A stretch of DNA of 59,678 bases from a virus (taxonomy: Duplodnaviria; Caudoviricetes). A program made the position numbers and the translations under genes. The notes under the pieces are model-generated. The model saw nothing but the letters and a program-made list of their open reading frames with translations. It was not told the origin of the DNA and searched no databases. Of the stretch, positions 142-59,678 are shown in pieces (the stretch's first letter is position 1; every line of letters begins with the position of its first letter). The DNA lies in the IMG/VR virus record IMGVR_UViG_3300037182_000030, positions 1 through 59,678 of that record; one strand, given 5' to 3'.

Positions 142-178
142 TTGGGATTTAGTGGAAGCCTTCACTAAAAAGTCCTAA
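26..178 (+). CDS. Cassette 2 cargo: 50-aa two-TM membrane peptide (copy A)
   Basis: MRTTIMIAAILLVGAHGVPESKVNIGTGIAIFGLFWSLAWDLVEAFTKKS; two hydrophobic stretches; stop is the TAA of TAA|C. Confidence 0.75.
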   Translation: MRTTIMIAAILLVGAHGVPESKVNIGTGIAIFGLFWSLAWDLVEAFTKKS

Positions 179-264
179 CGTGGAATCCAGCGATGAGGCG
201 ACGATGGACAACCGAAAAACAAATGCAGCGACTACGCCTCATTCGCTGCGATGACTGGTTAGGA
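173..264 (-). repeat. attC: attC site (attI-proximal, #1)
   Basis: TCCTAAC...ATCCAGCGATGAGGCG / CGCCTCATtCGCTGcGAT...GTTAGGA hairpin with two extrahelical bases. Confidence 0.9.
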
Positions 265-269
265 CTTTT

Positions 270-422
270 ATGCGAACAACAATAATGATAGCTGCAATCC
301 TTTTGGTCGGCGCTCATGGAGTGCCGGAAAGCAAAGTAAATATCGGAACTGGAATAGCCACATTCGGACTATTCTGGTCACTGGCTTGGGACTTGATCGA
401 AGCCTTCACCAAAAAGTCCTAA
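270..422 (+). CDS. Cassette 1 cargo: 50-aa two-TM membrane peptide (copy B)
   Basis: Near-identical paralog of 26-178. Confidence 0.75.
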   Translation: MRTTIMIAAILLVGAHGVPESKVNIGTGIATFGLFWSLAWDLIEAFTKKS

Positions 423-458
423 CATGTATTCTACGCCGCCAAAGGCTGTATAACAGGA
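417..458 (-). other. attI: Putative attI site
   Basis: Last core site (minus strand GTTAGGA) has no attC hairpin and abuts the intI start codon; a second GTTATAC lies 31 nt away (448-454), like an attI direct repeat. Confidence 0.7.
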
Positions 459-42883: not shown

Positions 42884-43046
42884 AACCTGAATCCTCCGAC
42901 ACCCGCGCCGCCGAAATCACAGCCAAAAAAAGATTTGACAGATTCGCCAAAGCGTGAAATACTCACAGCAATGGTGATGCCCGGTCGGGTAGTGTTAGGT
43001 TCGGCCCGGAGGGGCATGGTCAGCTATGGCAACAAAAGAAAAGAAT

Positions 43047-44066
43047 ATGAATGAAGAATCAAAAAGCACGCGGTCACAGGAAATCACATCGGCACTTGCG
43101 CCAGCTTACGCAAAAGCCTCAACGCTCAAATTGTCAAAGGCTGAAATCAAAAAGCTGACGAAGCCATTTGCCGATGACTTGGTTGAAATCCGGCCAAGCG
43201 ACGGCGTTTTATACGTTCCTCATATTCACATCGAAAATCGTCTGACGCAAGTTTTCGGCCCAGGCGGTTGGAGCTTCATTTGCCGCGAGCCGCTTTGGGA
43301 TGAAGGTTCCGGCGAGATCACCGCTGAATATATTTTGCTGGTGAGGGGATATTTCATCGGAGAGGAATTCGGGGAAGAAAAATACAACCCGCTTCAAGGC
43401 GACAAATACGGCGACAAACTTTCGTGCATCCAAGCCAAAGCGCTCCGCAGCATTTGCGGAAAGAAACTGGCGTGCGGCAGTCAGCTTTGGGAACCGGCGT
43501 ATTGTCAAAAATGGATTGCCAAGAACGCCGAACAATATCAGGGCGAGATTTACGACGGTCACCAAACTCAAAAAACAATGTTGTGGCGGAAAAAAGGAGC
43601 CAAGAGCACGTTGAGCGAATCCGAGACGCCGACGCCGCGCGCCAAGAAATACCAGCCAACCGAGGATGACAAGTTTTTGATGCTGCAATGCCTGTCCAGC
43701 CTGCCGAAAGATCAAGTCCTGAAATTCGCCATCGAGCAAAAGATTCTCACCGACGGCCAGACGCTTGAAGATTGGCCGATGGAAAAGGTTGTGGCCGGGG
43801 AAGTCGCCATCCGCAAACTGCAAACCCAAATCATCGGCAGCTTTCCATCAGCCAAGTCGGAGCCGAAAATCTGGCAGGAAACTGAAATCCCATTCGGCAG
43901 CATGAAGGGCAAGAAACTTGGCGAGCTTGCCAAAGACGTTCTCGCCGGATATTGGGAGGCCATGTCCACCGCTGTAATCACCGGGCAGGATGATTTCAAA
44001 AAGGCATTGTCCGACGCCGCCAAATTTCACCACTTGACAAAACTCAAACAAAGCAGTAAAAAATAA
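43047..44066 (+). CDS. Rad52/Mgm101-family ssDNA-annealing recombinase
   Basis: L..PF....VEIRP.DG.LY.PHI....RL..VFGPGGW. Confidence 0.75.
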   Translation: MNEESKSTRSQEITSALAPAYAKASTLKLSKAEIKKLTKPFADDLVEIRPSDGVLYVPHIHIENRLTQVFGPGGWSFICREPLWDEGSGEITAEYILLVRGYFIGEEFGEEKYNPLQGDKYGDKLSCIQAKALRSICGKKLACGSQLWEPAYCQKWIAKNAEQYQGEIYDGHQTQKTMLWRKKGAKSTLSESETPTPRAKKYQPTEDDKFLMLQCLSSLPKDQVLKFAIEQKILTDGQTLEDWPMEKVVAGEVAIRKLQTQIIGSFPSAKSEPKIWQETEIPFGSMKGKKLGELAKDVLAGYWEAMSTAVITGQDDFKKALSDAAKFHHLTKLKQSSKK

Positions 44067-44099
44067 ACCGTCAGTTAAACCAAAAAGAAAGAAAAGAAT

Positions 44100-45023
44100 A
44101 TGAATGACCTGTTAATCGTCCCGAAAATTGGAAACCCGGCACCGGCAGTCTCACCCGAAGCGGAGTCGAAGAAAATGGAATTGCTGGCGCGCTCCGCGCT
44201 TGTGGTTCAAGTCACCAACGAAGCCGAGTTGAAAATCAATGTTGAACAGTCGCAGGAAATCCAGCGGCTTATCAACATCGCCGACAATTCCGGCGAACAC
44301 GAATATCGCCCGTTCAAAACCGTTTGCGATTGGATTTCTTCCACCGTCAAAAAATACAAATTCGACCTCGTGAACGAAAAGGAGCGTCTGAAAAAGATGC
44401 GGGATAACTTCGCAGCGCAAGAGGCGGCGCGCGTCGAAGCCGAGCAGCGGAAGCTTGACGAAGCCCGGCAGAAAGCCGAACGCGAAGCGGCAGCGGCCAT
44501 CGCCGAGCAGGAACGGCAGGCCCGTGAAGCTGCCGAAAAAATTGCCGCCGAAAACCGTCGCATCGAAGGCGAGCGGGTTGAAAAGGAACGCAAGCTGGCA
44601 GCGGCCATCGAAGAACAAAAACGCCTTGAAGGAATGAAGCGCCAGTCAGCGGAAAAGAAAGCCGCCGCTGAAAAAGCAATCGCCGCAGCGCAGGCCGAAC
44701 TTGAAAAGGCGAACGCAAAAAAGGCGCAATCGGTTCCGAACATCGCGCAGGAAATCGCCGCCGAGGTAAAGGTCCAGGCCGCAGTCGAAAACCTTCACAA
44801 GATTCAAACCACCGTCGCGCCGCAAGCCGCCAAAGCCGCCGGCTACGGTGCAAAAAAAGTCGTGAAATACGAAATACTAAACCCGGATTCACTTTACCGA
44901 GTTCGGCCAGAATGGTTTTCACTCATTCCTAAAAAGCAGATTATGAACGATTCAATTACGGAGGCAACATCTTTGCCCGGATTGAAGGTTTGGACCACCA
45001 TCGAAACCCAAACACGCAGCTAA
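44100..45023 (+). CDS. Coiled-coil protein of the recombination module
   Basis: E/A/K-rich helix; C-terminal ...LPGLKVW. Confidence 0.65.
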   Translation: MNDLLIVPKIGNPAPAVSPEAESKKMELLARSALVVQVTNEAELKINVEQSQEIQRLINIADNSGEHEYRPFKTVCDWISSTVKKYKFDLVNEKERLKKMRDNFAAQEAARVEAEQRKLDEARQKAEREAAAAIAEQERQAREAAEKIAAENRRIEGERVEKERKLAAAIEEQKRLEGMKRQSAEKKAAAEKAIAAAQAELEKANAKKAQSVPNIAQEIAAEVKVQAAVENLHKIQTTVAPQAAKAAGYGAKKVVKYEILNPDSLYRVRPEWFSLIPKKQIMNDSITEATSLPGLKVWTTIETQTRS

Positions 45024-45032
45024 ACAATTTAT

Positions 45033-45127
45033 GAACGCGCGGTGTCAGTGCATAGCCGAGTTCCGAACGCGAAAGCGAGTCGGACAAGACTTGGCCGGTG
45101 AAGGCGTGGAGCCTTCCGCGTTCGCCA
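45033..45127 (+). ncRNA. tRNA-like structured RNA
   Basis: 7-bp acceptor stem GAACGCG/CGCGTTC + G + CCA; 5-bp T-like arm GAAGG-CGTGGAG-CCTTC; long central arm. Confidence 0.45.
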
Positions 45128-45134
45128 ATCCAAA

Positions 45135-45746
45135 ATGAACCCAAGCCAAAATATGAAGATACTCTTTTGCGACACGGAAACTTCCGATCTGGCGAACTTT
45201 GAACTTCATGCCAGAGACAACCGCCAGCCCCATATCGCGGCGGCGTCTGCCATCATCACCGACGAAGCCAACAAGGAGCTTGAACGCTTCGCGGCCATCG
45301 CCAAAGAAACCACTTGGACCAGCCAGCCGGCGGCACGCGAGACGCACGGCATCACCCGCGAGCGGTCACTGGCGGAAGGGATTGACGAAAGAATCATCGT
45401 CGAAACAATTCTGGCGATGATTAAGCGGGTGGATTTGATTGTCGCCTTCAATTCCACCTTCGACAAGTTCGTGATTCGGATTGGAGCACGCCGCTTCGGG
45501 CTTTTCACCGACGCCGATGACGTTAGTTGGAAAGCCTTAAACGTCTTTTGCACCATGCGCCCGATGACCAACATTTGCTGTATCCCAAAGAAGTCCGGCA
45601 GCGGTTTCAAATTCCCAAAACTGGCGGAAGCCTACAAGCACGCCTTCGGCAAGGAACTTCAAAAGGCGCATCAGGCGGCACCGGACAACGAAGCCAACCG
45701 GGAACTGTATTTCTGGATTCAGGCGCATCAACCGAAAGGTGAATAA
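45135..45746 (+). CDS. DnaQ-like 3'-5' exonuclease (DEDDh)
   Basis: DTETS, HGIT, VAFNSTFD, CTM, PKL.E.Y, AH.A..D. Confidence 0.88.
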   Translation: MNPSQNMKILFCDTETSDLANFELHARDNRQPHIAAASAIITDEANKELERFAAIAKETTWTSQPAARETHGITRERSLAEGIDERIIVETILAMIKRVDLIVAFNSTFDKFVIRIGARRFGLFTDADDVSWKALNVFCTMRPMTNICCIPKKSGSGFKFPKLAEAYKHAFGKELQKAHQAAPDNEANRELYFWIQAHQPKGE

Positions 45747-50631: not shown

Positions 50632-51146
50632 TTGCCCGCCGAAAAACACCAAGACCGCTCGCCTTATGGACTCAACTACCAGGGGCGCGTTTGACGCCTT
50701 CGCCAAAGGGACGCCAGCGAGAAAAGAATGGCGCAAGTGGATTCCGTTCCTTCACCCGGTCGAAATACTTATCGAAATTGCCAAGGCAAAAGCCGATCAA
50801 AAAAGTGTCCACTAAAAAACAAAAGTCAGACCGGCTTTACATGGCCATCGCAAAAGAGCATCGCCGGCAGCCGGGCAACGATTATTGCCGGGTTAAATTC
50901 GCGCTGACAAGACGAGTAATTCCGGCAACTCACACGCACCACATTCGAGGCCGACTGAAAACTCTGAAATTCGACACGCGATTCTTTTGCCACACGACAT
51001 TTGAAAATAATCTTTGGCCTCACAGGAATCCAAAAAAGGCGCAAGCGTTGGGATTGATCGCTGGGCCGGGAGAGTGGAACGTCGCGCCAAATGACGCGGA
51101 AACTGAACGGATCAAAAGCTGGATGATTGAAAAAGGAATCTGGTAA
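50628..51146 (+). CDS. HNH-like protein; its stop forms the distal boundary of the array
   Basis: C......AT..HH.RGR; ends TGG TAA|C. Confidence 0.55.
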   Translation: MIARRKTPRPLALWTQLPGARLTPSPKGRQREKNGASGFRSFTRSKYLSKLPRQKPIKKVSTKKQKSDRLYMAIAKEHRRQPGNDYCRVKFALTRRVIPATHTHHIRGRLKTLKFDTRFFCHTTFENNLWPHRNPKKAQALGLIAGPGEWNVAPNDAETERIKSWMIEKGIW

Positions 51147-51238
51147 CGCATAGCTCTGCCATGAACACCGCGCCAACGATGCCCGATTGCAATGAAACCG
51201 CCAACGCGGTGGTCATTGGCAGCAGCGCATGGTTAGAC
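51141..51238 (-). repeat. attC: attC #16 (distal)
   Basis: TAAC-GCTCTGCCATGA / TCATtGGCAGcAGC-GTTAGAC. Confidence 0.85.
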
Positions 51239-51988
51239 GCCATTGTGTGTGATGACAATGTGAAAGTCCTCTCCGGCCTGCCTGATGCGTGTATAGACCT
51301 GACGGTAACAAGCCCACCGTATGACGACATCTTCGCGTATGGTGGTCACTCGTGGGACTTCAACGCGCTCGCGGCGCAACTCGCCCGCGTGACAAAGCCG
51401 GGCGGCGTGGTGGTGTGGATAATCGGCGACCAGACAAAGAACGGCGCGGAAACGCTGACGAGCTTCCGGCAAGCTCTCGCCTTCGACGCGCTCGGACTGC
51501 GGATGCACGACACGATGATCTACGAGAAATCCGGCGTGGCATACCCTGACAGCAACCGATACCTGCAAGTCGTGGAATGGATGTTCGTCATGTCGAAGGG
51601 AAAACCGAAAACCGCGAACCTGCTGCGTGACCGGCCAAATAAATACGTCGGCACGATGGGCGGCAACGGACGCGGCGGACTGTGCAAGCGAAATGAGAAC
51701 GGCATCCGCTTCAACATCTGGCGATACCCGACTGGCCGCGACAACTCGACAAAAGACCGCGTGGCATACGAGCATCCGTGCGTGATGCCGGAAGCTCTCG
51801 CCCGCGACCATATCCTGACGTGGAGCAAGGAAGGTGAAACCGTGCTGGACTGCTTCGCTGGCAGCGGCACGACTCTGAAAATGGCACGGGAAACCAACCG
51901 CCGATACCTCGGCATCGAAGTGAATCAAACCTATGTGGACATCATCAACAAACGCCTCGAAAACCATGCGCTCCCGCTTGGCGTCTAA
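51161..51988 (+). CDS. Cassette cargo: DNA N4/N6 methyltransferase
   Basis: VTSPPY; HPCVMP; VLDCFAGSGTT; start codon inside attC. Confidence 0.92.
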   Translation: MNTAPTMPDCNETANAVVIGSSAWLDAIVCDDNVKVLSGLPDACIDLTVTSPPYDDIFAYGGHSWDFNALAAQLARVTKPGGVVVWIIGDQTKNGAETLTSFRQALAFDALGLRMHDTMIYEKSGVAYPDSNRYLQVVEWMFVMSKGKPKTANLLRDRPNKYVGTMGGNGRGGLCKRNENGIRFNIWRYPTGRDNSTKDRVAYEHPCVMPEALARDHILTWSKEGETVLDCFAGSGTTLKMARETNRRYLGIEVNQTYVDIINKRLENHALPLGV

Positions 51989-52072
51989 CATTGAGTCCAG
52001 CCATGCCGGGGCTGTGACTCCCAAATGAAACTGAAGCGGCCAACCGGCATTGGCTGCGACGATTTGTTGGGC
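51983..52072 (-). repeat. attC: attC #15
   Basis: GTCTAAC-GTCCAGCCATGCCGG / CCGGCATtGGCTGcGAC-GTTGGGC. Confidence 0.88.
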
Positions 52073-52103
52073 AGGCCGGTCTGAAAATAAGTGAAAATAA
52101 ATC

Positions 52104-52132
52104 TTGCTATCCGAACCGCTTGGGTTTAATCT
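52104..52132 (+). promoter_or_regulatory. Cassette-internal promoter
   Basis: TTGCTA-17-TAATCT, ATG 7 nt downstream. Confidence 0.55.
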
Positions 52133-52139
52133 CTCTTCA

Positions 52140-52388
52140 ATGAAAACATACTATGCCACCGCAAAAGACTGCAAAGAATTTGATACCGCAATCGCGAGCC
52201 TCCGGCCACTCGCAATCTCAATAGCGGAGACGCGCCGGTTGCTCGTAATGGCTGGGGTCGGAACATTCGGCACGGAAAAAGAACGCCAGATGCTTGCGAA
52301 ATTTGAGGATAAAATCACCAAACTCCAAACGAAGCTCTATAAACGCGCTCAAAAGGCTTGGTATCATTCCGCAGGAACCGTCCAATGA
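52140..52388 (+). CDS. Cassette cargo: hypothetical protein
   Basis: MKTYYATAK... Confidence 0.6.
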   Translation: MKTYYATAKDCKEFDTAIASLRPLAISIAETRRLLVMAGVGTFGTEKERQMLAKFEDKITKLQTKLYKRAQKAWYHSAGTVQ

Positions 52389-52528
52389 ATAAGGCCGCTC
52401 AATCTCTCGGACGCCTCGGCGGTCTAGCGAAGTCGAAAGCCAAGACTGCCGCTGCGCGTCGTAACGCAAAACTCGGTGGACGCCCGAAGAAAACCAAACG
52501 CTCGGCCCGGCGGCCTAACGCCGCGTGA
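52385..52528 (+). CDS. Cassette cargo: small basic GGRP peptide
   Basis: MNKAAQSLGRLGGLAKSKAKTAAARRNAKLGGRPKK...; not in the ORF track. Confidence 0.7.
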   Translation: MNKAAQSLGRLGGLAKSKAKTAAARRNAKLGGRPKKTKRSARRPNAA

Positions 52529-52620
52529 TGAGCCACGCGAGAATTTTATGAAACCAAAAACACTGAAAAAGACCAATCGCAAACCCGTAACCCGCGTTGG
52601 CTCCGGCACGCTTGTTAGCC
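52513..52620 (-). repeat. attC: attC #14
   Basis: GCCTAAC-GAGCCACGCG / CGCGTtGGCTC-GTTAGCC. Confidence 0.8.
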
Positions 52621-52856
52621 GACGGGTGAGGCTTGAATTTATGGTAGTGCCAGAACTACTCGCTACCAAAGCGTATGTCCCGACCCCGGTGCGCTGCAAA
52701 ATAATAGACCCGGAAGCAATCTTTCTGACGGGCATCTTGGGTGACAGTGGCCGCAAACTGGTAAAAGCTGGAATTGAGTTCTACTTTACGAAGCGTCTTG
52801 CTAACAAGTTAATCTCAAAGCGAATTGCCGTGAAGTCGGCTAACGAAAAAAGCTGA
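52548..52856 (+). CDS. Cassette cargo: hypothetical protein
   Basis: Start inside attC #14, stop inside attC #13. Confidence 0.6.
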   Translation: MKPKTLKKTNRKPVTRVGSGTLVSRRVRLEFMVVPELLATKAYVPTPVRCKIIDPEAIFLTGILGDSGRKLVKAGIEFYFTKRLANKLISKRIAVKSANEKS

Positions 52857-52963
52857 GCCACGGCGACGGGAAACAATCTCCGACTGCAAATGAAACAACC
52901 AAATAACCAAATAGCGCCGAAACTGACGGGGCAGTCGCCGTTGGCTCCGGCGCGTTGTTATGG
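52838..52963 (-). repeat. attC: attC #13
   Basis: GGCTAAC-GCTGAGCCACGGCGAC / GTCGCCGTtGGCTCcGGC-GTTATGG. Confidence 0.88.
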
Positions 52964-53499
52964 CTCAAATTATGAATAAACTGACTCAAAAAATTCGGTC
53001 TGCTTACGAGCAAATTAAGAAGCGGCCATTCGACCGCCTTCCGCTTCACGGCGTTGGGGCGGAAATTGGCGTCTATCGCGGCATCCACGCCCGTAAATTT
53101 CTCAACCGCATTGCCGTCCAAAAGCTCTACGTCGTTGATCCGTGGATAAACTACACGCAAATGTTTGATCTGCCGCAAGCGGAGCGCATCTGTCACTTTC
53201 TGCTGGACGGGTTTGAGGATAGGTGTGTTTTCTGCAAAGCCACGGCGCAGACGGCCAATCTCCCGCAACTGGACTTCGCCTACATAGACGCGTTGCACAC
53301 TGATGAGGGCGTAACTGCCGACATGGAAACAATCTGGCCGCTGATAAAGCCCGGCGGAATCATGGGCGGTCACGACTTTGACACGAACTGGCCGGGAGTG
53401 GTGCAAGGCGTCATCCGATTCGTGGCGAAAAACAACCTGACGCTTAACGTCCAGTCGCCGGATTGGTGGGTGGTCAAAAGCCATAACGACCCGAACTGA
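52960..53499 (+). CDS. Cassette cargo: class I SAM-dependent methyltransferase (Methyltransf_24-like)
   Basis: GAEIGVYRG, VDPW, DFAYIDA.H, IKPGG.M.GHDF. Confidence 0.85.
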   Translation: MAQIMNKLTQKIRSAYEQIKKRPFDRLPLHGVGAEIGVYRGIHARKFLNRIAVQKLYVVDPWINYTQMFDLPQAERICHFLLDGFEDRCVFCKATAQTANLPQLDFAYIDALHTDEGVTADMETIWPLIKPGGIMGGHDFDTNWPGVVQGVIRFVAKNNLTLNVQSPDWWVVKSHNDPN

Positions 53500-53591
53500 G
53501 ACACCGCCGATGTGCGGTGTCCGAACTCTAAAAAATCTTATGGCAAAAAAGAAAGCGTCAACGGCGGTTGTCTCCAGTGAGATGGTTCGGC
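53481..53591 (-). repeat. attC: attC #12
   Basis: CCATAAC-ACTGAGACACCGCCG / CGGCGGTtGTCTCcAGT-GTTCGGC. Confidence 0.88.
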
Positions 53592-53908
53592 AGCCGGATA
53601 ACCTGTATCTCCAATGGCACGGGGATGCTGAACCGACCGACTCACCAATCAGCGTGATGGATGTCACATGGTCACGAGATAAAATCTGGCCGTATGACAT
53701 CGAATATGCCCGCGTCCCAAACGATGCCTTCATCGCCCCACTGATGAGGTGGCTGGTGCAACGGGAAGGAAAATGCGCGGCGACAACCATGAGCATCCTT
53801 AAACGCAAGCTCGACCGCTACATCGAAACCGCCAATCACGAAGAATGGCGCAAGCTGCCGAACGTCCTGCGTGAGCCAAGCGGGACTGACGGCTCACGAT
53901 TGAAATGA
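53540..53908 (+). CDS. Cassette cargo: hypothetical protein
   Basis: P...YLQW......VTW..D.I...DIEY.R phage-type motif. Confidence 0.65.
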   Translation: MAKKKASTAVVSSEMVRQPDNLYLQWHGDAEPTDSPISVMDVTWSRDKIWPYDIEYARVPNDAFIAPLMRWLVQREGKCAATTMSILKRKLDRYIETANHEEWRKLPNVLREPSGTDGSRLK

Positions 53909-53946
53909 CAGCGACAACCCGCTTTGGCTCCACGCAGTTGTTGGGC
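53857..53946 (-). repeat. attC: attC #11
   Basis: GCCGAAC-CGTGAGCCAAGCGGG / CCCGCTTtGGCTCcACG-GTTGGGC. Confidence 0.88.
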
Positions 53947-54402
53947 AGGCCGGCTGAAAATATACAAATGAAAATACATCTGATAATCGAAATCGAGGAC
54001 GACGGAAAGACGCGCCGCGCCACCGTGCAGCGCGTGGCGAAAGTCGCGGAACTCAACGGCGACCGTGAACTGCTCATCGCGCCAGCCGCCGCGCTCGAAA
54101 TCATCAAGAAACAGAAGCGTGCAAAAATCGCGGATGTCGCGCCCGCGCCAGTGCCGCCGCTACCTGAACCGGACGCGCCGAAAATCGAGCGCAAAGGCTC
54201 CGGCCCGCAATTCGATCCCGGCTTTCTGAAAATCATCGAGGATGCGCCCGAACCGTTCACGCGCCGGAGTCTCGCGGTGAGTAGCGGCTTGAAAGTCGAG
54301 GACGTGACACAACGGCTAATCCGGCTGCACAAGAAAGGCTGGATACACCAGCCCGCCCGCGAAATGTGGGTGAGAACCAAAACCTTTGGAGAAAAGCCGT
54401 GA
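53905..54402 (+). CDS. Cassette cargo: protein with C-terminal winged helix
   Basis: PFT...LA...GL....V...L.RL.KKGWI. Confidence 0.6.
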   Translation: MTATTRFGSTQLLGRPAENIQMKIHLIIEIEDDGKTRRATVQRVAKVAELNGDRELLIAPAAALEIIKKQKRAKIADVAPAPVPPLPEPDAPKIERKGSGPQFDPGFLKIIEDAPEPFTRRSLAVSSGLKVEDVTQRLIRLHKKGWIHQPAREMWVRTKTFGEKP

Positions 54403-54680
54403 GCAACTTCGACAAGCAATATGCGCGGCAAGGTGGCCGGTGCTTCTGGTGCCAACATCTTGTGCCAGTCGCGGCCATGACCCGCGACCATATCGAGCCA
54501 AAAACCCACGGCGGCGCAAACGACTGGTCAAACATCGTGCTGGCCTGCGCCAAGTGCAACGAAGCCAAGTCCGCGCTCCATGTCGGCAGCATCCGGTTCG
54601 ACAAGAGGCTGCGGAAAGTAATGCGCGGAGAAATCTATCGCTTCATCCGCCGGGAAACATTCAAACACAACGCGACATGA
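54399..54680 (+). CDS. Cassette cargo: HNH endonuclease
   Basis: Q.GRCFWC......T.DHI.P...GG.N...NIVLAC..CN..K. Confidence 0.85.
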   Translation: MSNFDKQYARQGGRCFWCQHLVPVAAMTRDHIEPKTHGGANDWSNIVLACAKCNEAKSALHVGSIRFDKRLRKVMRGEIYRFIRRETFKHNAT

Positions 54681-54687
54681 ACCGGCT

Positions 54688-54816
54688 GCCCAACGACTGA
54701 CTTCAGACACCGCCGACAATATGCAAACCAACTCTGAACCAACTGCGATGCCCGCCGAAGCCAACAACTCCCGAACCGCCAGCGATGAGGCGGTTGTCTG
54801 CAAGGAATTGTTGGGC
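54688..54816 (-). repeat. attC: attC #10
   Basis: GCCCAAC-CTTCAGACACCGCC / GGCGGTtGTCTGcAAG-GTTGGGC. Confidence 0.88.
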
Positions 54817-55077
54817 TGCGGTGGTAAGACTGCCATCAAACCATACAAGGAACTAAAACCGTGTCCTTTCTGTTTCGGTGCGGCCTGCCTCCATCGTCGG
54901 CGGTCGGTGAACAATGCCGTAGGCCACGCGAAAACCGGGTGGGTGTATCACGTCCACTGCACCGACTGCGGCGCTCATTTTCACGAGGACGGAAACGAAG
55001 GAAGTGCTGTCTCGCGCTGGAACTCACGAGAGCAGCCCAACGGTCGGGATCAGAGGCCCGGCGACCAAAACGCATGA
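54721..55077 (+). CDS. Cassette cargo: Lar-family restriction alleviation-like protein
   Basis: ELKPCPFC.G....V.C..CGA......A...WN.R. Confidence 0.75.
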   Translation: MQTNSEPTAMPAEANNSRTASDEAVVCKELLGCGGKTAIKPYKELKPCPFCFGAACLHRRRSVNNAVGHAKTGWVYHVHCTDCGAHFHEDGNEGSAVSRWNSREQPNGRDQRPGDQNA

Positions 55078-55125
55078 ATACGAATGAGACGCAATCGCCG
55101 GGTTCTCTGCATCCCGTGGTTCGGC
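55035..55125 (-). repeat. attC: attC #9
   Basis: GCCCAAC-GATCAGAGGCCCGGCGA / TCGCCGGGTtCTCTGcATC-GTTCGGC. Confidence 0.88.
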
Positions 55126-55418
55126 ATCCCTCGTTCGATGCTGATGGATACCCAACCGAGGAAACCGAACTGGCAATCAAGGCGTGGGACTTTCGAGACG
55201 CGCCCGGCTGGCTGGCATACATCCGCGAGGCGTGGAATCACCACTATGGTAGAATGTGGGAAGACAACGGAACGATCAAGATGGCGACTGGCGGATGGAG
55301 TGGCAACGAATCAATCACGCACTCCATGCGAGAGAACTACATCCTATGGTCGCTGCTTTGGGAATCGTCGCATCGGGGCGGCCTCGAAGTGCTCAGGATG
55401 CCGAACATTTCAAGCTGA
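55074..55418 (+). CDS. Cassette cargo: conserved phage hypothetical
   Basis: D.DGYPTEE....I..W...TGGWSGNE.I......W...W.SS.RGG. Confidence 0.7.
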   Translation: MNTNETQSPGSLHPVVRHPSFDADGYPTEETELAIKAWDFRDAPGWLAYIREAWNHHYGRMWEDNGTIKMATGGWSGNESITHSMRENYILWSLLWESSHRGGLEVLRMPNISS

Positions 55419-55509
55419 GCCACAGGCGCGAACTGAATAAACCGTGAATCTGCAAACCGACATCCAAACGACAGCAGCCCCGCCTGTTGGCTCCGGCGCT
55501 GTGTTAGGC
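55400..55509 (-). repeat. attC: attC #8
   Basis: GCCGAAC-GCTGAGCCACAGGCG / CGCCTGTtGGCTCcGGC-GTTAGGC. Confidence 0.88.
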
Positions 55510-55998
55510 GGCAAGTGTCCGGTGTGTGGCGGGCCGAACCCCAAGCGGCATGGGTCTTTTGAGAAAACTTGTTCTTTAAGTTGCGGCCATAAATTGAGAT
55601 TCCAAACCGACCCCAAAGTAAAAAAGCTTCTGCTAAAATACAGATATGTCTGCCTCGGATGGCACGGAAAAGGAAAAGGCGCGAGGGATAATCCCGACCA
55701 CGCAAACGCCAAAGCCATCCGAGTTCGTGATCCGCTTGGTGTGGTGCATGAAATCAAAAACATAACGTCTTGGTGCCGAAAAAATGAACAACTATTCAAG
55801 CCATACGATAACCCGGAGGCAAAGCTTCCGCTCTGGCGACGCGCACAAGTAGGTCTGACAAGTATTGCTTGCGGAGACAAGTGCTCGTGGCATGGCTGGA
55901 CTGCTGTTTGCGTTTTCGACATAGAAGCTGACCCACTGGCAAGGCGCGTGGCTTTGCCGCCTAACGTGGCGCTAAAACACGGCGGCGATCACCAATGA
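55444..55998 (+). CDS. Cassette cargo: Zn-ribbon plus putative DNA-binding domain protein
   Basis: CPVCG...TCS..C; DP.G....I.N...WCR.N...GW. Confidence 0.6.
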   Translation: MNLQTDIQTTAAPPVGSGAVLGGKCPVCGGPNPKRHGSFEKTCSLSCGHKLRFQTDPKVKKLLLKYRYVCLGWHGKGKGARDNPDHANAKAIRVRDPLGVVHEIKNITSWCRKNEQLFKPYDNPEAKLPLWRRAQVGLTSIACGDKCSWHGWTAVCVFDIEADPLARRVALPPNVALKHGGDHQ

Positions 55999-56066
55999 CT
56001 TTCGACTGCAAATCGAATCTGGAAACTGCGGGGACTCCCGCCGTTGTTTTCAGCAACTGGTTAGGG
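55959..56066 (-). repeat. attC: attC #7
   Basis: GCCTAAC-GCTAAAACACGGCGG / CCGCCGTtGTTTTcAGC-GTTAGGG. Confidence 0.88.
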
Positions 56067-56077
56067 AGCGTCAAACT

Positions 56078-56353
56078 ATGAGCTGGTCACTAAACCTGAT
56101 AGGAAAAAAAGAGGATGTCCAAGCCTGCGTGAAAGCGCAAATCGTGGACACAAAATACGCGCCTGAAATCGGCATGGCAATCATTGCTGAAATCTCGGCG
56201 ATACCAGGGCCAACTGGTGTGCCTGATGGACACTGGAGCGCAACGCACGTCATTGTGCGAGGCAGCGGCCACACTGGCGGCGGCGTGAACGAACTGAAAA
56301 TCGAACCGTTCACGGAATGCAAAACACCTGTGGTAGCACCGCCTGTAACCTGA
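56078..56353 (+). CDS. Cassette cargo: hypothetical protein
   Basis: MSWSLNLIGKK...; coupled to attC-encoded peptide 55995-56081. Confidence 0.65.
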   Translation: MSWSLNLIGKKEDVQACVKAQIVDTKYAPEIGMAIIAEISAIPGPTGVPDGHWSATHVIVRGSGHTGGGVNELKIEPFTECKTPVVAPPVT

Positions 56354-56387
56354 ACCGACGGGGAGCTTGAGCGTCGAAACTCAAGCT

Positions 56388-56497
56388 CCCTAACGATGAA
56401 AGCTGAGCCACCGCTGACTATGGACACACAACAACCAACGACTCCTGCGGCAACCCGCGATGACCAACAGCGGTTGGCTCCGGCGGGTTTGTTAGGC
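56388..56497 (-). repeat. attC: attC #6
   Basis: CCCTAAC-GCTGAGCCACCGCTG / CAGCGGTtGGCTCcGGC-GTTAGGC. Confidence 0.88.
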
Positions 56498-56713
56498 CAC
56501 GTCCGAAAACATGGACTCCAAATAGAATGGTGCCGAGACATCCCGGAAGGCGCGCGAAAACTGGCGGTGAACAGAACTCGTGAAATGCTGATCCACTACG
56601 GGCGCAACATCACCAGCCTGAACATCGAAACCCTAGTGCTGTCTTGCTACCTGCAAGGCATCAATGACTGCTTTGAATACCATGAACATAAATCTAAAAC
56701 TGTGGGCAATTAA
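56420..56713 (+). CDS. Cassette cargo: hypothetical protein
   Basis: Start inside attC #6; L..SCYLQG..D. Confidence 0.6.
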   Translation: MDTQQPTTPAATRDDQQRLAPAGLLGHVRKHGLQIEWCRDIPEGARKLAVNRTREMLIHYGRNITSLNIETLVLSCYLQGINDCFEYHEHKSKTVGN

Positions 56714-56813
56714 AATGATCTTCGTGTGGCGCTGGCGTTGCGGATACTGGGACTGGGACGCATTCCGCGCCGCTTGGAACGTCAAGTGGCCTAACGGCCC
56801 GGATCAGCGATGA
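56682..56813 (+). CDS. Cassette cargo: 43-aa Trp-rich peptide
   Basis: MNINLKLWAIKMIFVWRWRCGYWDWDAFRAAWNVKWPNGPDQR; TGA overlaps ATG 56810. Confidence 0.45.
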   Translation: MNINLKLWAIKMIFVWRWRCGYWDWDAFRAAWNVKWPNGPDQR

Positions 56814-56882
56814 GCGCCACCCAAGACATTCAAATTGAAACCGACGTGCGTGGCGCTCATTCGCTGCATCCGGTGGTTGGGG
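56789..56882 (-). repeat. attC: attC #5
   Basis: GCCTAAC-GATCAGCGATGAGCGCCAC / GTGGCGCTCATtCGCTGcATC-GTTGGGG. Confidence 0.9.
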
Positions 56883-57679
56883 CGCATTTCGAGGACTCAC
56901 AAACTAGAATCATAAACGCCGACTGCCTGAACACGCTCGAAGAAATGGAAGATGGAAGCTGCCATGCTGTAATCACTGACCCGCCGTTCTCGTCTGGTGC
57001 GCGAACCGACGCCGGAAAGAATATGCGCGGCGGGATGCAACGCGGCGCGAAGTGGCAAGAGAACTGGTTCAGTCACGACAACCTCGCCACTCACGGCTTC
57101 AACTATCTGATGCGCCTGGTGGCTGTGGAACTCTACCGTGTGACAACGCCAACCGCGACCGCCCACTTCTTCATAGACTGGCGGATGTATCCGAACCTCT
57201 ACGCCGTGGTGGAGTCGGCGGGATGGATCGCAAAGAATCTCGTGGTGTGGGACAAGAAACACTTCGGGATGGGCGGCAACTACCGCAACCAGCACGAGCT
57301 AATCCTCTACTGCGAAAAGACGGCTGGCGCTGACTTCCGGCAAAAGAACCTCGGCAACGTGATAAGCAGCAAGCGGGCTGAAATGCTGCACCATCCGACA
57401 GAGAAGCCGACCGACATCCTCGGTCTGATGATTCGGGCGGTGACTGACGAGGGGCAAACCGTGCTCGACCCATTCATGGGCAGCGGGTCAACGCTTCGCG
57501 CCGCCAAAGACAACAATCGGAAATCAATCGGCATCGAGATATGCCGAGAATACTGCGAAGTGGCCGCAGCACGGATGGCTCAAACCGTCCTGCCACTGGA
57601 CGCGCCCGCAATGCGCCCCAACGCAGAGTTCAGGAACGCCGCATCTGGCGTTCCCGGACTCGATGGAGGCGTCCAATAG
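56810..57679 (+). CDS. Cassette cargo: DNA N4/N6 methyltransferase
   Basis: ITDPPF; HPTEKP; VLDPFMGSGST. Confidence 0.92.
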   Translation: MSATQDIQIETDVRGAHSLHPVVGAHFEDSQTRIINADCLNTLEEMEDGSCHAVITDPPFSSGARTDAGKNMRGGMQRGAKWQENWFSHDNLATHGFNYLMRLVAVELYRVTTPTATAHFFIDWRMYPNLYAVVESAGWIAKNLVVWDKKHFGMGGNYRNQHELILYCEKTAGADFRQKNLGNVISSKRAEMLHHPTEKPTDILGLMIRAVTDEGQTVLDPFMGSGSTLRAAKDNNRKSIGIEICREYCEVAAARMAQTVLPLDAPAMRPNAEFRNAASGVPGLDGGVQ

Positions 57680-57705
57680 GCGTTTCCTGCAACGATTTGT
57701 TGGGC
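57616..57705 (-). repeat. attC: attC #4
   Basis: CCCCAAC-GTTCAGGAACGCC / GGCGTTtCCTGcAAC-GTTGGGC. Confidence 0.88.
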
Positions 57706-57736
57706 AGGCCGGTCTGAAAATAAATGAAAATAGTTC

Positions 57737-57765
57737 TTGCAACCAAAGCGGCTTGGGTTTATTGT
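57737..57765 (+). promoter_or_regulatory. Cassette-internal promoter
   Basis: TTGCAA-17-TATTGT, ATG 6 nt downstream. Confidence 0.55.
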
Positions 57766-57771
57766 GTGGGT

Positions 57772-57978
57772 ATGAAAACGAACGAAATCAAATCGGTGTC
57801 AGCGGCGCACGGCAAAATGAACATCGTTCACGCGGCGGGCGCGACGGTGGAAGGCTGCACGGCGGCATACTACGCGCTCTGCGGCGACACGCGGGCAATC
57901 CGGCGGTCAATGCGCGGATTTCTTGAAGTGTATGTCCCGGTGAACTGCCCGTCATGCCTTGCCAAGCTCGCAAAATGA
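57772..57978 (+). CDS. Cassette cargo: small Zn-binding protein
   Basis: VH......ALCG......VNCPSC. Confidence 0.6.
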   Translation: MKTNEIKSVSAAHGKMNIVHAAGATVEGCTAAYYALCGDTRAIRRSMRGFLEVYVPVNCPSCLAKLAK

Positions 57979-58289
57979 AAACTGAATGGAAATGGCTACT
58001 CGACTGGATAGCACAAAACGGCAGCGCCGACTGCTTGAACACGCCGCTCGCGCTCGACGCCTGCGAGCGGTTCGGATGGCGCTGCATCAGAACTGGCCTG
58101 CATACGGTGTCAACGCCTCGCGTCGGACGGGAACTGGCGAAGATGGCAAGGGCTGGCTACCTCGAAAAGAGCCGCGCCGGAATCTCCGGACTCGGCTACG
58201 GGTGGCCGAAATGGGTGTGGACATACAGCCTGACAAGTATGGCTGCCCAAATTGCAACGGAGACGGTTGCGAACTCTGCCGCTAAATGA
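57975..58289 (+). CDS. Cassette cargo: winged-helix-like protein
   Basis: GR.L..M...GYL...R.G......GWPKWV..Y.L. Confidence 0.6.
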   Translation: MKTEWKWLLDWIAQNGSADCLNTPLALDACERFGWRCIRTGLHTVSTPRVGRELAKMARAGYLEKSRAGISGLGYGWPKWVWTYSLTSMAAQIATETVANSAAK

Positions 58290-58465
58290 ACATCACAAAA
58301 TATCTGTCTGAAATCGGGCGCAAAGGCGGTAAAGCCAAGAGCCGCGCCAAACTCGCCGCTGCGCGTGCAAATGGGAAACTTGGTGGACGCCCGAAGAAAC
58401 CTAAACGCGCCGCCCGTCTGCCCAACACTAAAGTGAGCAGCGTGATCGTGAGCAACCGTGAATAA
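58286..58465 (+). CDS. Cassette cargo: small basic GGRP peptide
   Basis: MNITKYLSEIGRKGGKAKSRAKLAAARANGKLGGRPKK...; paralog of 52385-52528. Confidence 0.7.
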   Translation: MNITKYLSEIGRKGGKAKSRAKLAAARANGKLGGRPKKPKRAARLPNTKVSSVIVSNRE

Positions 58466-58541
58466 CTCGACAACCATTCTAACCACTGAAACCGTGCCAA
58501 CTGGCGGGAGCAATCACGTCTGCTCCACTGCCTTGTTAGAG
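58420..58541 (-). repeat. attC: attC #3
   Basis: GCCCAAC-AGTGAGCAGCGTGAT / ATCACGtCTGCTCcACT-GTTAGAG. Confidence 0.88.
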
Positions 58542-59276
58542 CACAGGATCGTGGCGCTCTCTGGTGGAAAAGACTCAACCGCTCTCGCTCTCCGGCTCGC
58601 GGAAGTAGAACCGCAAGCGTATCAATTCTGCATCACGCCGACAGGCCGCGAACTGCCGGAAATGCTCGACCACTGGAAAAAGCTGGAATGTCTGCTTGGC
58701 GCTCCGCTGGTGCGAATCCCAGGCCCGTCGCTGCTCGACCTCATCATCAAATACAAGACGCTGCCAAACTTCCGGCTGCGCTACTGCACGCGGGAAGTGA
58801 AAATCGAGCCATTCATCAAATACGCGGAGAGCCTCGCGCCTGCAATCTGCTACGTCGGCATCCGTGCCGATGAAGCCGATGACCGCGAAGGAACGAACTG
58901 GAATGGCATCGAAGGCGTGAAACAAGACCTGCCGCTGGTGCGCTGGGGATGGGGCGTGAACCGCGTAAAAGAATATCTGCGCGAACGCGGCGTGACGATA
59001 CCGGAACGGACGGACTGCGACTGCTGCTATCACCAGCAACTCGGCGAATGGTGGCGGCTGTGGCGCGACCACATAGACCGCTGGATGGAAATCGAAGCTC
59101 TCGAAATCTGGACTGGTCACACGCTCCGCAGTGAACAGCGCGACTCGTGGCCGGCGAGCCTGAAAGAACTCCGCGCAAAATTTGAAGCTGGCTACATCCC
59201 GAAAGGGGCAGCGCAAATGAAAATCCCGCTCGACGTAGCCGAGCGGAAAACAATGTGCGCTTGGTGCGCTCGATAA
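58458..59276 (+). CDS. Cassette cargo: PAPS-reductase-family (PP-loop) protein
   Basis: VALSGGKDSTAL; TG.E.PE; R.CT...KI.P; VGIRADE..R; PL..WG; R..C..C. Confidence 0.85.
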   Translation: MNNSTTILTTETVPTGGSNHVCSTALLEHRIVALSGGKDSTALALRLAEVEPQAYQFCITPTGRELPEMLDHWKKLECLLGAPLVRIPGPSLLDLIIKYKTLPNFRLRYCTREVKIEPFIKYAESLAPAICYVGIRADEADDREGTNWNGIEGVKQDLPLVRWGWGVNRVKEYLRERGVTIPERTDCDCCYHQQLGEWWRLWRDHIDRWMEIEALEIWTGHTLRSEQRDSWPASLKELRAKFEAGYIPKGAAQMKIPLDVAERKTMCAWCAR

Positions 59277-59277
59277 T

Positions 59278-59547
59278 ATGCCATACGAAACCCTACACCC
59301 CGGAAAGAAATGTCCCGAATGCGGCGGCAGGGGAAAAATCTACCGTCACGTTCCGAAATACGCGATAGCCATGCCCGGCGTGGCTGACGACTGGACATAC
59401 GAAGATCAAGAATGCTGGCGCTGTCATGGTGACGGCATCGCGCGTTCGCTGGACGCACGGCTGTGCTCTAACGTAGAAGTCAGCGATGGCGCGTCGCTGA
59501 CCAACCGAAAAACAAACGCAGCGTCCTCGCGCCATTCGCTGCACTGA
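59278..59547 (+). CDS. Cassette cargo: DnaJ-type zinc-finger peptide
   Basis: CPECGGRG...CWRCHGDG; reads through attC #2. Confidence 0.6.
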   Translation: MPYETLHPGKKCPECGGRGKIYRHVPKYAIAMPGVADDWTYEDQECWRCHGDGIARSLDARLCSNVEVSDGASLTNRKTNAASSRHSLH

Positions 59548-59557
59548 CGGGTTAGGA
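59466..59557 (-). repeat. attC: attC #2
   Basis: CTCTAAC-AGTCAGCGATGGCGCG / CGCGCCATtCGCTGcACT-GTTAGGA. Confidence 0.9.
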
Positions 59558-59678
59558 CTTTTATGAGAACAACAATAATGATAGCTGCAATCCTTTTGGT
59601 CGGCGCTCATGGAGTGCCGGAAAGCAAAGTAAATATCGGAACTGGAATAGCCAGATTCGGACTGTTGTGGTCACTGGC

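Follow-up and report, generated by a model that had tools for sequence, protein, structure and literature searches.

A textbook integron cassette consists of a promoterless gene followed by its attC, and is read from a promoter near the integrase. As described in passages of Qi et al. 2023 (PMC9892861), attC clusters occur in virulent and temperate phages, several with DNA methyltransferase cargo and most without an integrase; the arrays comprise two or three sites in the usual gene orientation, and the three complete integrons, each in a temperate phage, are of host or class 1 type. These passages make no mention of bottom-strand genes or of starts within attC; the supplementary tables may bear on orientation. 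A role of attC in translation is treated in a section of a review of Jacquier 2009 and Hanau-Bercot 2002 (PMC8876359). There, an mRNA hairpin blocks ribosomes, and short ORFs in attC and attI1 (ORF-11, ORF-17, and ORF-18) rescue translation of the next cassette, the small in-site ORF keeping the hairpin open and handing on by termination–reinitiation. These systems have a top-strand gene, an attC that is part of the preceding cassette, and a small ORF distinct from the cargo gene. In the designed sites presented by Nivina et al. 2020 (PMC7439510, in its section on them), placed in linkers or lacZ and tested with IntI1, one stretch of DNA is both a working attC fold and a tolerated peptide. The inverted integron-integrase group outlined in Cury et al. 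2016 (PMC4889954) has an unusual relative orientation, in that intI points the same way as attC.

The locus described here lies in a stretch of 59,678 nucleotides of phage DNA (the window). Like the phage arrays above, the present array carries DNA methyltransferase cargo, and five relatives lack an integrase; the putative integron of the window is unlike the three complete ones, and its cassettes read as reversed. Two short ORFs, in a3 and a9, resemble those of attC and attI1, whereas the cargo genes would mostly start in their own attC. The overlap of fold and peptide would be as in the designed sites, but natural and N-terminal. The relative orientation is unusual as in the inverted group, but here intI and the top strand keep their usual divergence, and the turned elements are the cargo genes. 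We consider it rather probable that this is a phage-borne integron with reversed cassettes, in which the attC heads its own gene and most likely holds the start codon and the first 15–30 codons. The array would run from 51141 to 59678 and continue at 1–458, with the integrase gene at 459–1412 (Table 1).

Table 1 Sites, integrase, and cargo genes of the array (window positions)
Feature	Position	Strand	Remark
attC a0	51141..51238	+	farthest from intI; outer box TGGTAAC matches no cassette end
attC a1	51983..52072	+	repeated leader of ~75 nt, then gene start far downstream (52140)
attC a2	52513..52620	+	loop ATG 52548
attC a3	52838..52963	+	ATG 52960 within 3' box; out-of-frame loop ORF 52890–52977 ends just beyond it
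attC a4	53481..53591	+	in-frame ATGs 53510, 53540, 53582
attC a5	53857..53946	+	loop ATG 53905; likelier gene start is ATG 53968, picked by other public gene calls
attC a6	54688..54816	+	loop ATGs 54721, 54748
attC a7	55035..55125	+	loop ATG 55074; ATGA overlap with stop of preceding gene
attC a8	55400..55509	+	loop GTG 55444
attC a9	55959..56066	+	loop ORF 55995–56081 spans from preceding gene's stop to ATG 56078
attC a10	56388..56497	+	ATGs 56396, 56420
attC a11	56789..56882	+	ATG 56810 in 5' arm stem, overlapping stop of a 49-codon ORF
attC a12	57616..57705	+	followed by repeated leader; gene start downstream
attC a13	58420..58541	+	loop GTG 58458
attC a14	59466..59557	+	short site; gene start ATG 59563, 6 nt past box
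attC a15	173..264	+	closest relative of a14; gene start ATG 270
Box TCCTAAC without hairpin	417..458		36 nt before intI; no attC by stem aligner
IntI-like tyrosine recombinase, 317 aa	459..1412	+	profile matches, IntI1 identity
N6/N4 DNA methyltransferase	51161..51988	+	first 26 codons in a0
Cargo, no assigned function	52548..52856	+	first 24 codons in a2
Class I methyltransferase (Methyltransf_24)	52960..53499	+	domain match
Cargo, no assigned function	53540..53908	+	first 17 codons in a4
Lar-like restriction alleviation protein	54721..55077	+	domain starts 10 codons past box, no start codon between
Cargo, no assigned function	55074..55418	+	first 17 codons in a7
Cargo, zinc-ribbon-like head, no assigned function	55444..55998	+	first 22 codons in a8
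Cargo, no assigned function	56420..56713	+	first 26 codons in a10
Second N6/N4 DNA methyltransferase	56810..57679	+	first 24 codons in a11, last 19 in a12
PAPS-reductase-like protein	58458..59276	+	first 28 codons in a13

Our own stem aligner finds 16 attC in the window, all on the + strand, with no other + strand match at an equal threshold and four scattered matches on the − strand. All 16 are imperfect hairpins with RYYYAAC and GTTRRRY boxes, in which AAC and GTT are invariant; their lengths of 90–129 nt fall within the 57–141 nt allowed for attC. Comparing the 7-mer that follows one hairpin with the 7-mer that precedes the next shows exact reverse complementarity in 13 of 14 cassettes, and the fourteenth has a one-base mismatch that gives a G–T pair on the + strand. 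This box complementarity across each cassette marks genuine integron sites, as a crossover within the box would leave. The sites are predicted to be recombined by an integron integrase.

The hairpins also define the strand. Each of the 16 sites carries two unpaired bases on the 3' arm of the + strand, at positions 16 and 22/23 from the site end. According to the relevant part of PMC5027507, the bottom strand of attC carries the extrahelical bases, which face the 5'-AAC arm at approximately positions 16 and 23/24; the arrangement expected of attC, two or three such bases on one arm at ~16 and 23/24 with 6 bp between them, is matched in 16 of 16 sites by the pair at 16 and 22/23. The stems covary across the sites while both unpaired bases stay invariant. 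The extrahelical T never changes, and the first extrahelical base is C in the 16 sites, not the usual G, a feature that counts against the reading of reversed cassettes. As a control, the same script was applied to a class 1 integron, where it assigns the unpaired bases to the strand opposite that of aadA. In the window, the coding strand is the attC bottom strand in 13 of 14 intervals, whereas a canonical cassette has its ORF opposite the recombined strand; in the phage arrays overall, ORFs are on the bottom strand in 32 of 36 intervals (28 of 29 among strong calls). Chromosomal arrays of Verrucomicrobiota with this attC family (L134, L169, L193, L189, L167, L171, and L142) have the same arm sequences and unpaired-base positions, and box pairs flank each gene as in the phage array. 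By the same rule they are canonical, unlike the phage array, with top-strand ORFs in 29 of 41 intervals (17 of 22 strong calls) and an ATG 6–23 nt past the box, and their attC are uniform in length (99 nt, or 117–123 nt). No ATG was found inside attC for any of 31 genes of these canonical arrays. The start lies downstream of the box in 31 of 31 bacterial controls and in only 5–6 of 16 window cassettes.

The integrase gene is positioned at the other end of the array. Its product matches TIGR02249 best (E = 4.6e-68, positions 4–297 of 315), as well as PF13495 and PF00589, and shares 35% identity with IntI1 across 95% of its length. The TIGR02249 score of 229.9 bits is below the NCBIfam cut-off of 265, which counts against its identity as an integron integrase. 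The gene diverges from the top strand of the array; beside it stands the box without a hairpin, a putative attI-side junction of the first cassette, and the far end carries a complete attC whose outer box is atypical. The junction between array and intI depends solely on the overlap of the record ends (139 of 141 bases). Since the extrahelical bases identify the coding strand with the attC bottom strand, and intI and the half-site are at the other end of the array, we read the cassettes as reversed, and each attC as sharing a cassette with the gene behind it. Cargo would thus lie on the strand that folds and is cut, and for this reason the cassette unit would be attC then gene, with the hairpin placed 5' of the gene it belongs to. 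The integrase may move such attC-plus-gene units.

The initial annotation had reported ten in-frame starts inside attC, and all ten are present (ATG at 51161, 52548, 53540, 53905, 54721, 55074, 56420, and 56810; GTG at 55444 and 58458), each flanked by the pair of 7-nt boxes of its hairpin and in frame with a long downstream ORF. The ten encoded peptides had also been read correctly (IGSSAWLD, VGSGTLVS, VVSSEMVR, FGSTQLLG, VVCKELLG, SLHPVVR, VGSGAVLG, LAPAGLLG, SLHPVVG, and VCSTALLE), and two ORFs that it described as bridging to the next gene are real, one ending with ATGA on ATG 56078 and the other ending just past ATGs 52960 and 52972. For the window, we counted frames with an in-frame ATG that lies 30 nt or more within the attC and reads open as far as the box: these are 8 of 14 gene frames and 5 of 28 others (p = 0.015), a count that leaves out the two GTG starts. 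Across nine phage contigs (the window and eight related ones) with 51 attC, such an ATG occurs in 28 of 43 cargo frames and in 9 of 86 other frames (p = 2.5e-10); this count omits 8 attC that have no coding frame across the box, detector matches outside arrays, and L031, a near copy of L008. When only frames open over the last 30 nt are compared, the numbers are 28 of 39 and 9 of 49 (p = 4.6e-7). The in-frame leaders have a codon score of +54.7, against −44.1 and −36.5 in the other frames, under a codon model trained on this phage alone, and the gene's frame scores best in 20 of 28 leaders. The median length of sites that contain an inner ATG is 111 nt, against 92 nt for the others. The ORFs upstream end within the attC or close by it, four of them in an ATGA overlap. 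An in-frame frequency no higher than in shuffled controls had been named as an argument against the starts; given the enrichment in cargo frames, the codon usage of the leaders, the start-less stretches after the box, and the upstream stops at attC, that argument fails, the frequency exceeding that of control frames.

It is unlikely, though it is the strongest of the alternatives, that the cassettes are reversed but translation starts at an NTG abutting the 3' box or just past it, the open frames being T-poor untranslated leaders. In eight of the ten cases an in-frame ATG, GTG, or TTG lies right at the 3' box, 8–9 nt before the attC end, and is a potential true start; in five of ten a start follows within 22 nt of the box. 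However, these box-adjacent codons are in the most stable part of the hairpin (−37 to −58 kcal/mol, unpaired probability 0.14–0.30), and loop starts are less paired than they are at 8 of 10 sites. TT or TG before GTT is found in a class 1 attC too, and so belongs to the site itself rather than signalling a start. The leader peptides vary freely, and for the PAPS-like gene five public gene calls begin far inside the gene; but the leaders show the in-frame codon bias, and only 9 of 49 control frames from the same T-poor loops contain an open ATG. In addition, no ATG, GTG, or TTG was found within 60 nt after the box of five window genes, and a start after the box would cut the Lar domain of the restriction alleviation protein. 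ATG 56810 is buried in the stem, which counts against its use as a start. A search for RNA runs containing the stretch returned none.

We therefore prefer starts within the attC. In 10 of 16 window cassettes the gene would start in the variable hairpin loop or at the end of the 5' arm, and would read on through the conserved 3' arm and box. Because of this passage, unrelated proteins would share look-alike stretches, for example VGSGxLLG or SLHPVV. The similar N-termini are by-products of the conserved 3' arm, read in two main frames, and nothing points to their selection as tags. The preceding gene usually stops in the 5' arm or loop, so the hairpin may already be melted by the ribosome finishing it, and the layout predicts translational coupling. 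In at least two further cassettes, a short loop ORF would bridge to a start just past the box. Among 15 attC without an in-frame ATG, five (three of them in the window) have a short attC-started ORF ending at or near the next gene start; by layout, such ORFs fit the termination–reinitiation type. The hand-off that the initial annotation proposed thus holds as far as starts are enriched in the cargo frame, and not as a separate module, since the attC belongs to the cassette of the gene itself.

That annotation had assumed canonical cassettes, gene then attC, with the attC of the upstream cassette lending the start as a shuffle-proof hand-off. We regard this layout as highly unlikely, although several patterns of inheritance fit it. 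Near-identical methyltransferase genes have at least six unrelated leaders and PAPS-like genes at least eight, the switch falling exactly at the 3' box, and the leaders are poorly conserved as peptides; attC and gene are therefore not always co-inherited. Contigs from other samples break at that box (52960/1, 55502, and 55509). In record G005, an attC ~85% identical to a2 is fused in frame to a different ORF, the likeness ending within the 3' box, and in only one of the 14 most alike attC pairs between contigs is the downstream sequence shared. However, the other side of the cassette varies even more. In the 90% cluster of the gene at 53540, the leader pattern is kept in 13 of 14 members while the tails after the other box are of 12 kinds, and a gene 92% identical between the window and G003 has no downstream attC in common. 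The most alike attC pair in the window (rank 1 of 120) is a14/a15, both preceding duplicated genes; the second is a1/a5, both followed by the same repeated leader; and a permafrost contig matches the window from 58430 onward, just past the 5' box of a13. The canonical layout would also need an array that opens with a full attC and closes with a half-site facing the start of intI, and it conflicts with the extrahelical bases, which mark the ORF strand as bottom in 16 of 16 sites, in agreement with the aadA control and the bacterial arrays.

The five related records G001–G005, three of which are incomplete, each have 4–10 arrayed attC sites and no match to PF00589, including one complete genome with terminal repeats, and are CALINs in the sense of at least two attC with no integrase nearby. 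The expected linkage of the N-terminal motif to intI is thus contradicted. As a means of finding arrays, the motif served in part: a DNA probe found related arrays, but most of its 119 matches were single chance matches. It is highly unlikely that the hairpins have lost their integrase function in most of these phages and persist as conserved joints for gene shuffling by the phage's own single-strand annealing recombinase and for translation punctuation, in-hairpin starts being a side effect of tight gene packing: the five records, the Mgm101-type annealing protein and exonuclease also encoded by the window, and breakpoints at both boxes and at arm–loop borders are in its favor, but the invariance of the unpaired bases in covarying stems points to ongoing integrase selection, and intI stands beside the array in the window itself.

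If the cassettes are reversed, the array must be expressed from its far end. The same recombination grammar would be used in reverse inside a phage operon, new cassettes would land last in it, and a start codon and a coding arm must be accommodated within the recombination site. If translation does begin in the loops, as we infer from frame and codon bias, a natural stretch is at once a recombination site, a translation start, and a peptide. To our knowledge, this triple role has so far been shown for designed sites only. In phages of this kind, cassette borders and gene starts will be misplaced by integron finders and gene callers built on the canonical orientation.

A wider reading, which we put forward tentatively and lean against, is that Verrucomicrobiota phages keep their own pool of reverse-sense cassettes, with the attC as a translated, frame-locked joint, and that the window carries a counter-defence integron. 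The 5' box would then be read by the preceding gene as an Asn codon or a stop, the loop would hold the next gene's start, and the 3' arm would be a tolerated N-terminal linker, so that cassettes could shuffle inside a one-directional operon without loss of expression. The window would stock anti-restriction cargo, namely two DNA methyltransferases and the Lar-like protein, mirroring the defence cassettes of bacterial integrons. From this cargo, it would seem that phages gather anti-restriction genes by means of integrons. In the Verrucomicrobiota arrays, 2 of 10 tested ORFs have Pfam matches.

The array lies in a linear IMG/VR virus record of 59,678 bases, for which completeness is estimated at 69% and in which the + strand carries all long ORFs. 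Fifteen hairpin sites, each between an RYYYAAC-type and a GTTRRRY-type box, run from 51141 to the record end, and the array continues at the record start with a further attC and then a lone box (the sixteen attCs are called a0 to a15). The record ends repeat, the first 141 bases matching the last 141 at 139 positions. The tyrosine recombinase matches its best family with E = 4.6e-68 and 229.9 bits, a score below the curated cut-off of 265; its N-domain is SAM-like (PF13495), and across 95% of its length it shares 35% identity with IntI1. A search of the integrase protein against viral contigs found no relatives. In 13 of 14 cassettes, the 7-mers after one hairpin and before the next are exact reverse complements of each other; in the fourteenth, the mismatch pairs as G-T on the + strand. 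Read from sequence, this complementarity is the footprint of crossover within the box. Two or three tandem copies of the small membrane-protein cassette occur, with 92% identity among them; their attCs share 77-78% identity, with compensating changes in the stem.

Features of the window (positions on the + strand)
Feature	Position	Description
Repeated record ends	1-141; 59538-59678
Membrane-protein cassette	26-179; 270-425	tandem copies
attC a15	173-264
Lone box	417-423
Tyrosine recombinase (IntI-like)	459-1412	317 aa; best family, integron integrase model TIGR02249
Recombination genes upstream of array	43026-45746	Mgm101-type single-strand annealing protein and RNase T-like exonuclease
attC a0	51141-51238
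attC a1	51983
attC a2	52513
attC a5	53857
attC a10	56388
attC a11	56789
attC a12	57616
attC a13	58420
attC a14	59466
Array cargo	start 51161	N6/N4 DNA methyltransferase
Array cargo	start 54721	Lar-like restriction-alleviation protein
Array cargo	start 56810	N6/N4 DNA methyltransferase
Array cargo	start 58458	PAPS-reductase-like protein
Array cargo		Methyltransf_24 protein
Array cargo		HNH nuclease
Repeated leader	52066-52140; 53940-53967; 57699-57772	from the 3' box of a1, a5 and a12
KGG-like small genes	52385-52528; 58286-58465
49-codon ORF	56664-56813	stops on ATG 56810

According to excerpts of Nivina et al. 2016 (PMC5027507), unpaired extrahelical bases mark the bottom strand of an attC. 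A MAFFT alignment of the 16 attCs, in which the 5' arms were misaligned, yielded no consensus pairs in RNAalifold, and we used instead a stem aligner written for this analysis, which anchors at both boxes and reports the unpaired bases of each arm. In all 16 attCs, the extra bases are on the + strand 3' arm, 9 and 15/16 nt before the GTT box (16 and 22/23 from the site end). Over the whole window, the aligner gives only these 16 sites on the + strand and four scattered matches on the - strand. In a control, a class 1 integron on a plasmid record, the extra bases G and T are at the same positions, on the strand opposite aadA. By the published rule, the attC bottom strand here is thus the + strand, on which the ORFs lie. 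The unpaired T and C are unchanged across the window attCs and the stems vary; the first extrahelical base is C, where the usual base is G. When viewed on the top (-) strand, intI and the array run away from each other on either side of 424-458, the arrangement of ordinary integrons. Next to intI is a cassette with only a box, without a hairpin, and the far end has a full attC, whose outer box (TGGTAAC) matches nothing. Therefore, from the extrahelical strand and the platform layout, the cassette for the integrase is 'C, attC, gene, RYYYAA', and each attC probably lies 5' of its own gene. The initial annotation had proposed that each cassette carries its own ribosome hand-off through the hairpin, which is close in spirit, but it places the cassette border wrongly, as judged from the extrahelical bases and the platform. 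On this reading, the integron cassette occurs here in a reversed variant with a coding attC, whose translation we infer from sequence.

The ten starts, the ten N-terminal peptides and the two bridging ORFs previously assigned to the attCs are all in place in the window. Among the 16 junctions are ten where an in-frame start codon (ATG or GTG) lies within the attC and no stop follows before the box, one (at 52960) with an ATG within the 3' box itself, and five where the gene starts downstream of the box, two of these after a repeated leader of ~75 nt. For the genes at 53540, 54721, 55074, 56420 and 56810, the nearest ATG, GTG or TTG past the box is 63-129 nt away. In the Lar-like gene (54721), starting at that codon would cut into the Pfam domain, whose first position lies 10 codons past the box. 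In eight of ten cases, the starts agree with those of public gene callers, for which the exact sequences are on record.

The commonest 3' arm, used as a DNA probe, matched 119 viral loci, mostly single chance matches. The arrays counted are those of the window, five related phage records fetched whole (G001-G005) and three further viral loci (L008, L070 and L071), with 51 attCs in total; detector matches outside arrays and L031, a near copy of L008, were excluded. In 43 of the 51 attCs the coding frame crosses the 3' box, and these enter the frame count. The criterion was an in-frame ATG lying 30 nt or more inside the attC, with no stop before the box; 28/43 gene frames and 9/86 other frames carry such an ATG (p = 2.5e-10; nine phage contigs). 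The initial observation thus holds, and the pattern is not chance. The numbers are 8/14 against 5/28 in the window only (p = 0.015) and 20/29 against 4/58 in the remaining phage contigs. When only frames without a stop in the final 30 nt are counted, so that those ended by the TAG in the box drop out, the numbers become 28/39 against 9/49 (p = 4.6e-7). Median attC length is 111 nt with an inner ATG and 92 nt without (p = 0.004). Under the phage codon model, with stop codons set to zero, the in-frame score of the 28 attC-encoded leaders, 451 codons in all, is +54.7, and the two shifted frames give -44.1 and -36.5; the in-frame reading scores best in 20 of the leaders (Wilcoxon p = 4.8e-6). In five of the 15 attCs lacking an in-frame ATG, an out-of-frame ORF starts in the attC and ends 13-23 nt past the box, near the gene start. 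Two more ORFs with 3'-arm-type strings (RIGSGDLLG and VRSGELLG) are on the - strand of G005 at 6480-6830 and 6810-7150; the detector gave no attC at either ORF, so the array counts are lower bounds.

Folded as RNA, the window attCs have energies of -37 to -58 kcal/mol. The surroundings of the loop starts are mostly unpaired (mean 0.46-0.77), and box-abutting in-frame NTG codons are in the stem (0.14-0.30); a0, a10 and a11 are exceptions, and the ATG of a11 (56810) is buried in the stem. Upstream genes terminate inside the next attC, and four stops overlap the following start as ATGA. Because upstream genes stop there, a ribosome ending the upstream gene would already have opened the 5' arm beside the next start. 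Experiments have demonstrated the same logic with ORF-11 of attI1 and with short ORFs of class 1 attC sites (reviewed in PMC8876359, section 3.2). We lean towards most loop starts in the attCs being used for translation. No RNA run is listed as containing the window, and window words were nearly absent from two metatranscriptome runs of one study. The AAC of the 5' box is read as Asn in every ORF running through it (ten boxes: window 51983-59472 and 173-423), the third frame is never used, and in three cases the upstream ORF terminates at the TAA of the box. Because the ORFs always read AAC as Asn, crossover at AA|C would not disrupt this codon. The look-alike peptides correspond to two main frames of the conserved 3' arm, with xGSGxxLLG-type strings in one and SLHPVV in the other; there is no sign of selection as tags. 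Gene 56420-56713 shares its last stretch with the 49-codon ORF, which also crosses the a11 5' box and could be a genuine small gene or serve only for coupling.

Variation around these genes was read from 90%-identity protein clusters. In the cluster of gene 53540, 13 of 14 members have one leader pattern of constant length, and the tails past the box (..KLPN) have 12 forms; in the 54721 cluster, two members have a common leader and different tails. Units of 'attC plus gene' would be expected to show this constant leader with a variable tail. Ranked 1 of 120 for likeness among the window's attC pairs, a14/a15 heads duplicated genes, and the second-ranked, a1/a5, heads the same repeated leader. 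A permafrost contig matches the window from 58430, just past the a13 5' box, into the gene, and other contigs end at the 5' box ends 54694 and 55965/6. However, several observations argue against attC-gene linkage: unrelated leaders number at least six for the methyltransferase at 51161, where all end in ..WLD, and at least eight for the PAPS-like gene, contig breaks are also found at 52960/1, 55502 and 55509, and a2 is ~85% identical to a G005 attC heading a different gene, the likeness ending inside the 3' box. From leader variety, box breakpoints and unshared flanks, exchange thus occurs at both boxes. The attC types are common to unrelated cassettes here, much as in chromosomal integrons. 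As a guide to the travelling flank, attC likeness was rejected: the 14 most alike pairs across contigs share the downstream flank in one case and the upstream flank in none. When the window is compared with G003 and G005, breakpoints fall at both boxes and favour neither cassette border.

A two-arm-core pattern found multi-site arrays in Verrucomicrobiota genomes, with 13, 10, 9, 5, 5, 4 and 3 sites by the detector, and these served to test the strand rule outside the phages. Between these sites, the better-coding strand is the top strand in 29/41 intervals (17/22 strong calls), compared with the bottom strand in 32/36 intervals of six phage records (28/29 strong; Fisher p = 1.5e-7), under a codon model whose training set, the long genes of this phage, might favour the phage calls; only intervals of 100 to 2500 nt were counted. 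Of ten bacterial top-strand ORFs, two match a Pfam family above cut-off (DMP19 and SMI1/KNR4). In three related phage records, tblastn matches to both methyltransferases and the PAPS-like protein sit on the detector's attC bottom strand. With the bacterial arrays read canonically, gene then attC, none of 31 genes has an inner attC ATG, and the ATG is mostly 6-23 nt past the box. Chromosomal arrays with the same attC family suggest that the host group is Verrucomicrobiota (Limisphaerales and relatives). Five Verrucomicrobiota MAG loci (L134, L167, L169, L189 and L193) hold large chromosomal arrays of this family, with up to 13 detected sites in 8 kb. In one peat run, attC-type words reach a depth of several hundred to over a thousand.

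The five related phage records, among them a complete genome with terminal repeats and a 91% complete record, have no match to the window integrase or PF00589. The linkage of the N-terminal motif to intI proposed earlier therefore fails (0/5), and the arrays of G001-G005 are of CALIN type, attC clusters without integrase. The Mgm101-type protein and exonuclease encoded upstream of the window array could drive short-homology exchange at conserved attC arms in such integrase-less relatives. Excerpts of published work already describe phage integrons and CALINs, some with methyltransferase cargo (PMC9892861), synthetic attC sites within coding sequence (PMC7439510) and inverted integrase orientation (PMC4889954 and PMC9668308). 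In the titles and abstract openings of the literature searched, we found no description of cargo on the attC bottom strand or of cargo starts inside attC.

A consensus promoter scan of the array gave no + strand site and three sites, all on the - strand, against 4.1 expected, and did not flag the repeated leader after a1, a5 and a12. This leader reads GTTGGGCAGGCCGG.CTGAAAATA... and, in contigs from other samples, is interrupted at 52080 by an insertion of 29-33 nt. Of the three cassettes headed by this leader, two also end in the related KGG-like genes.
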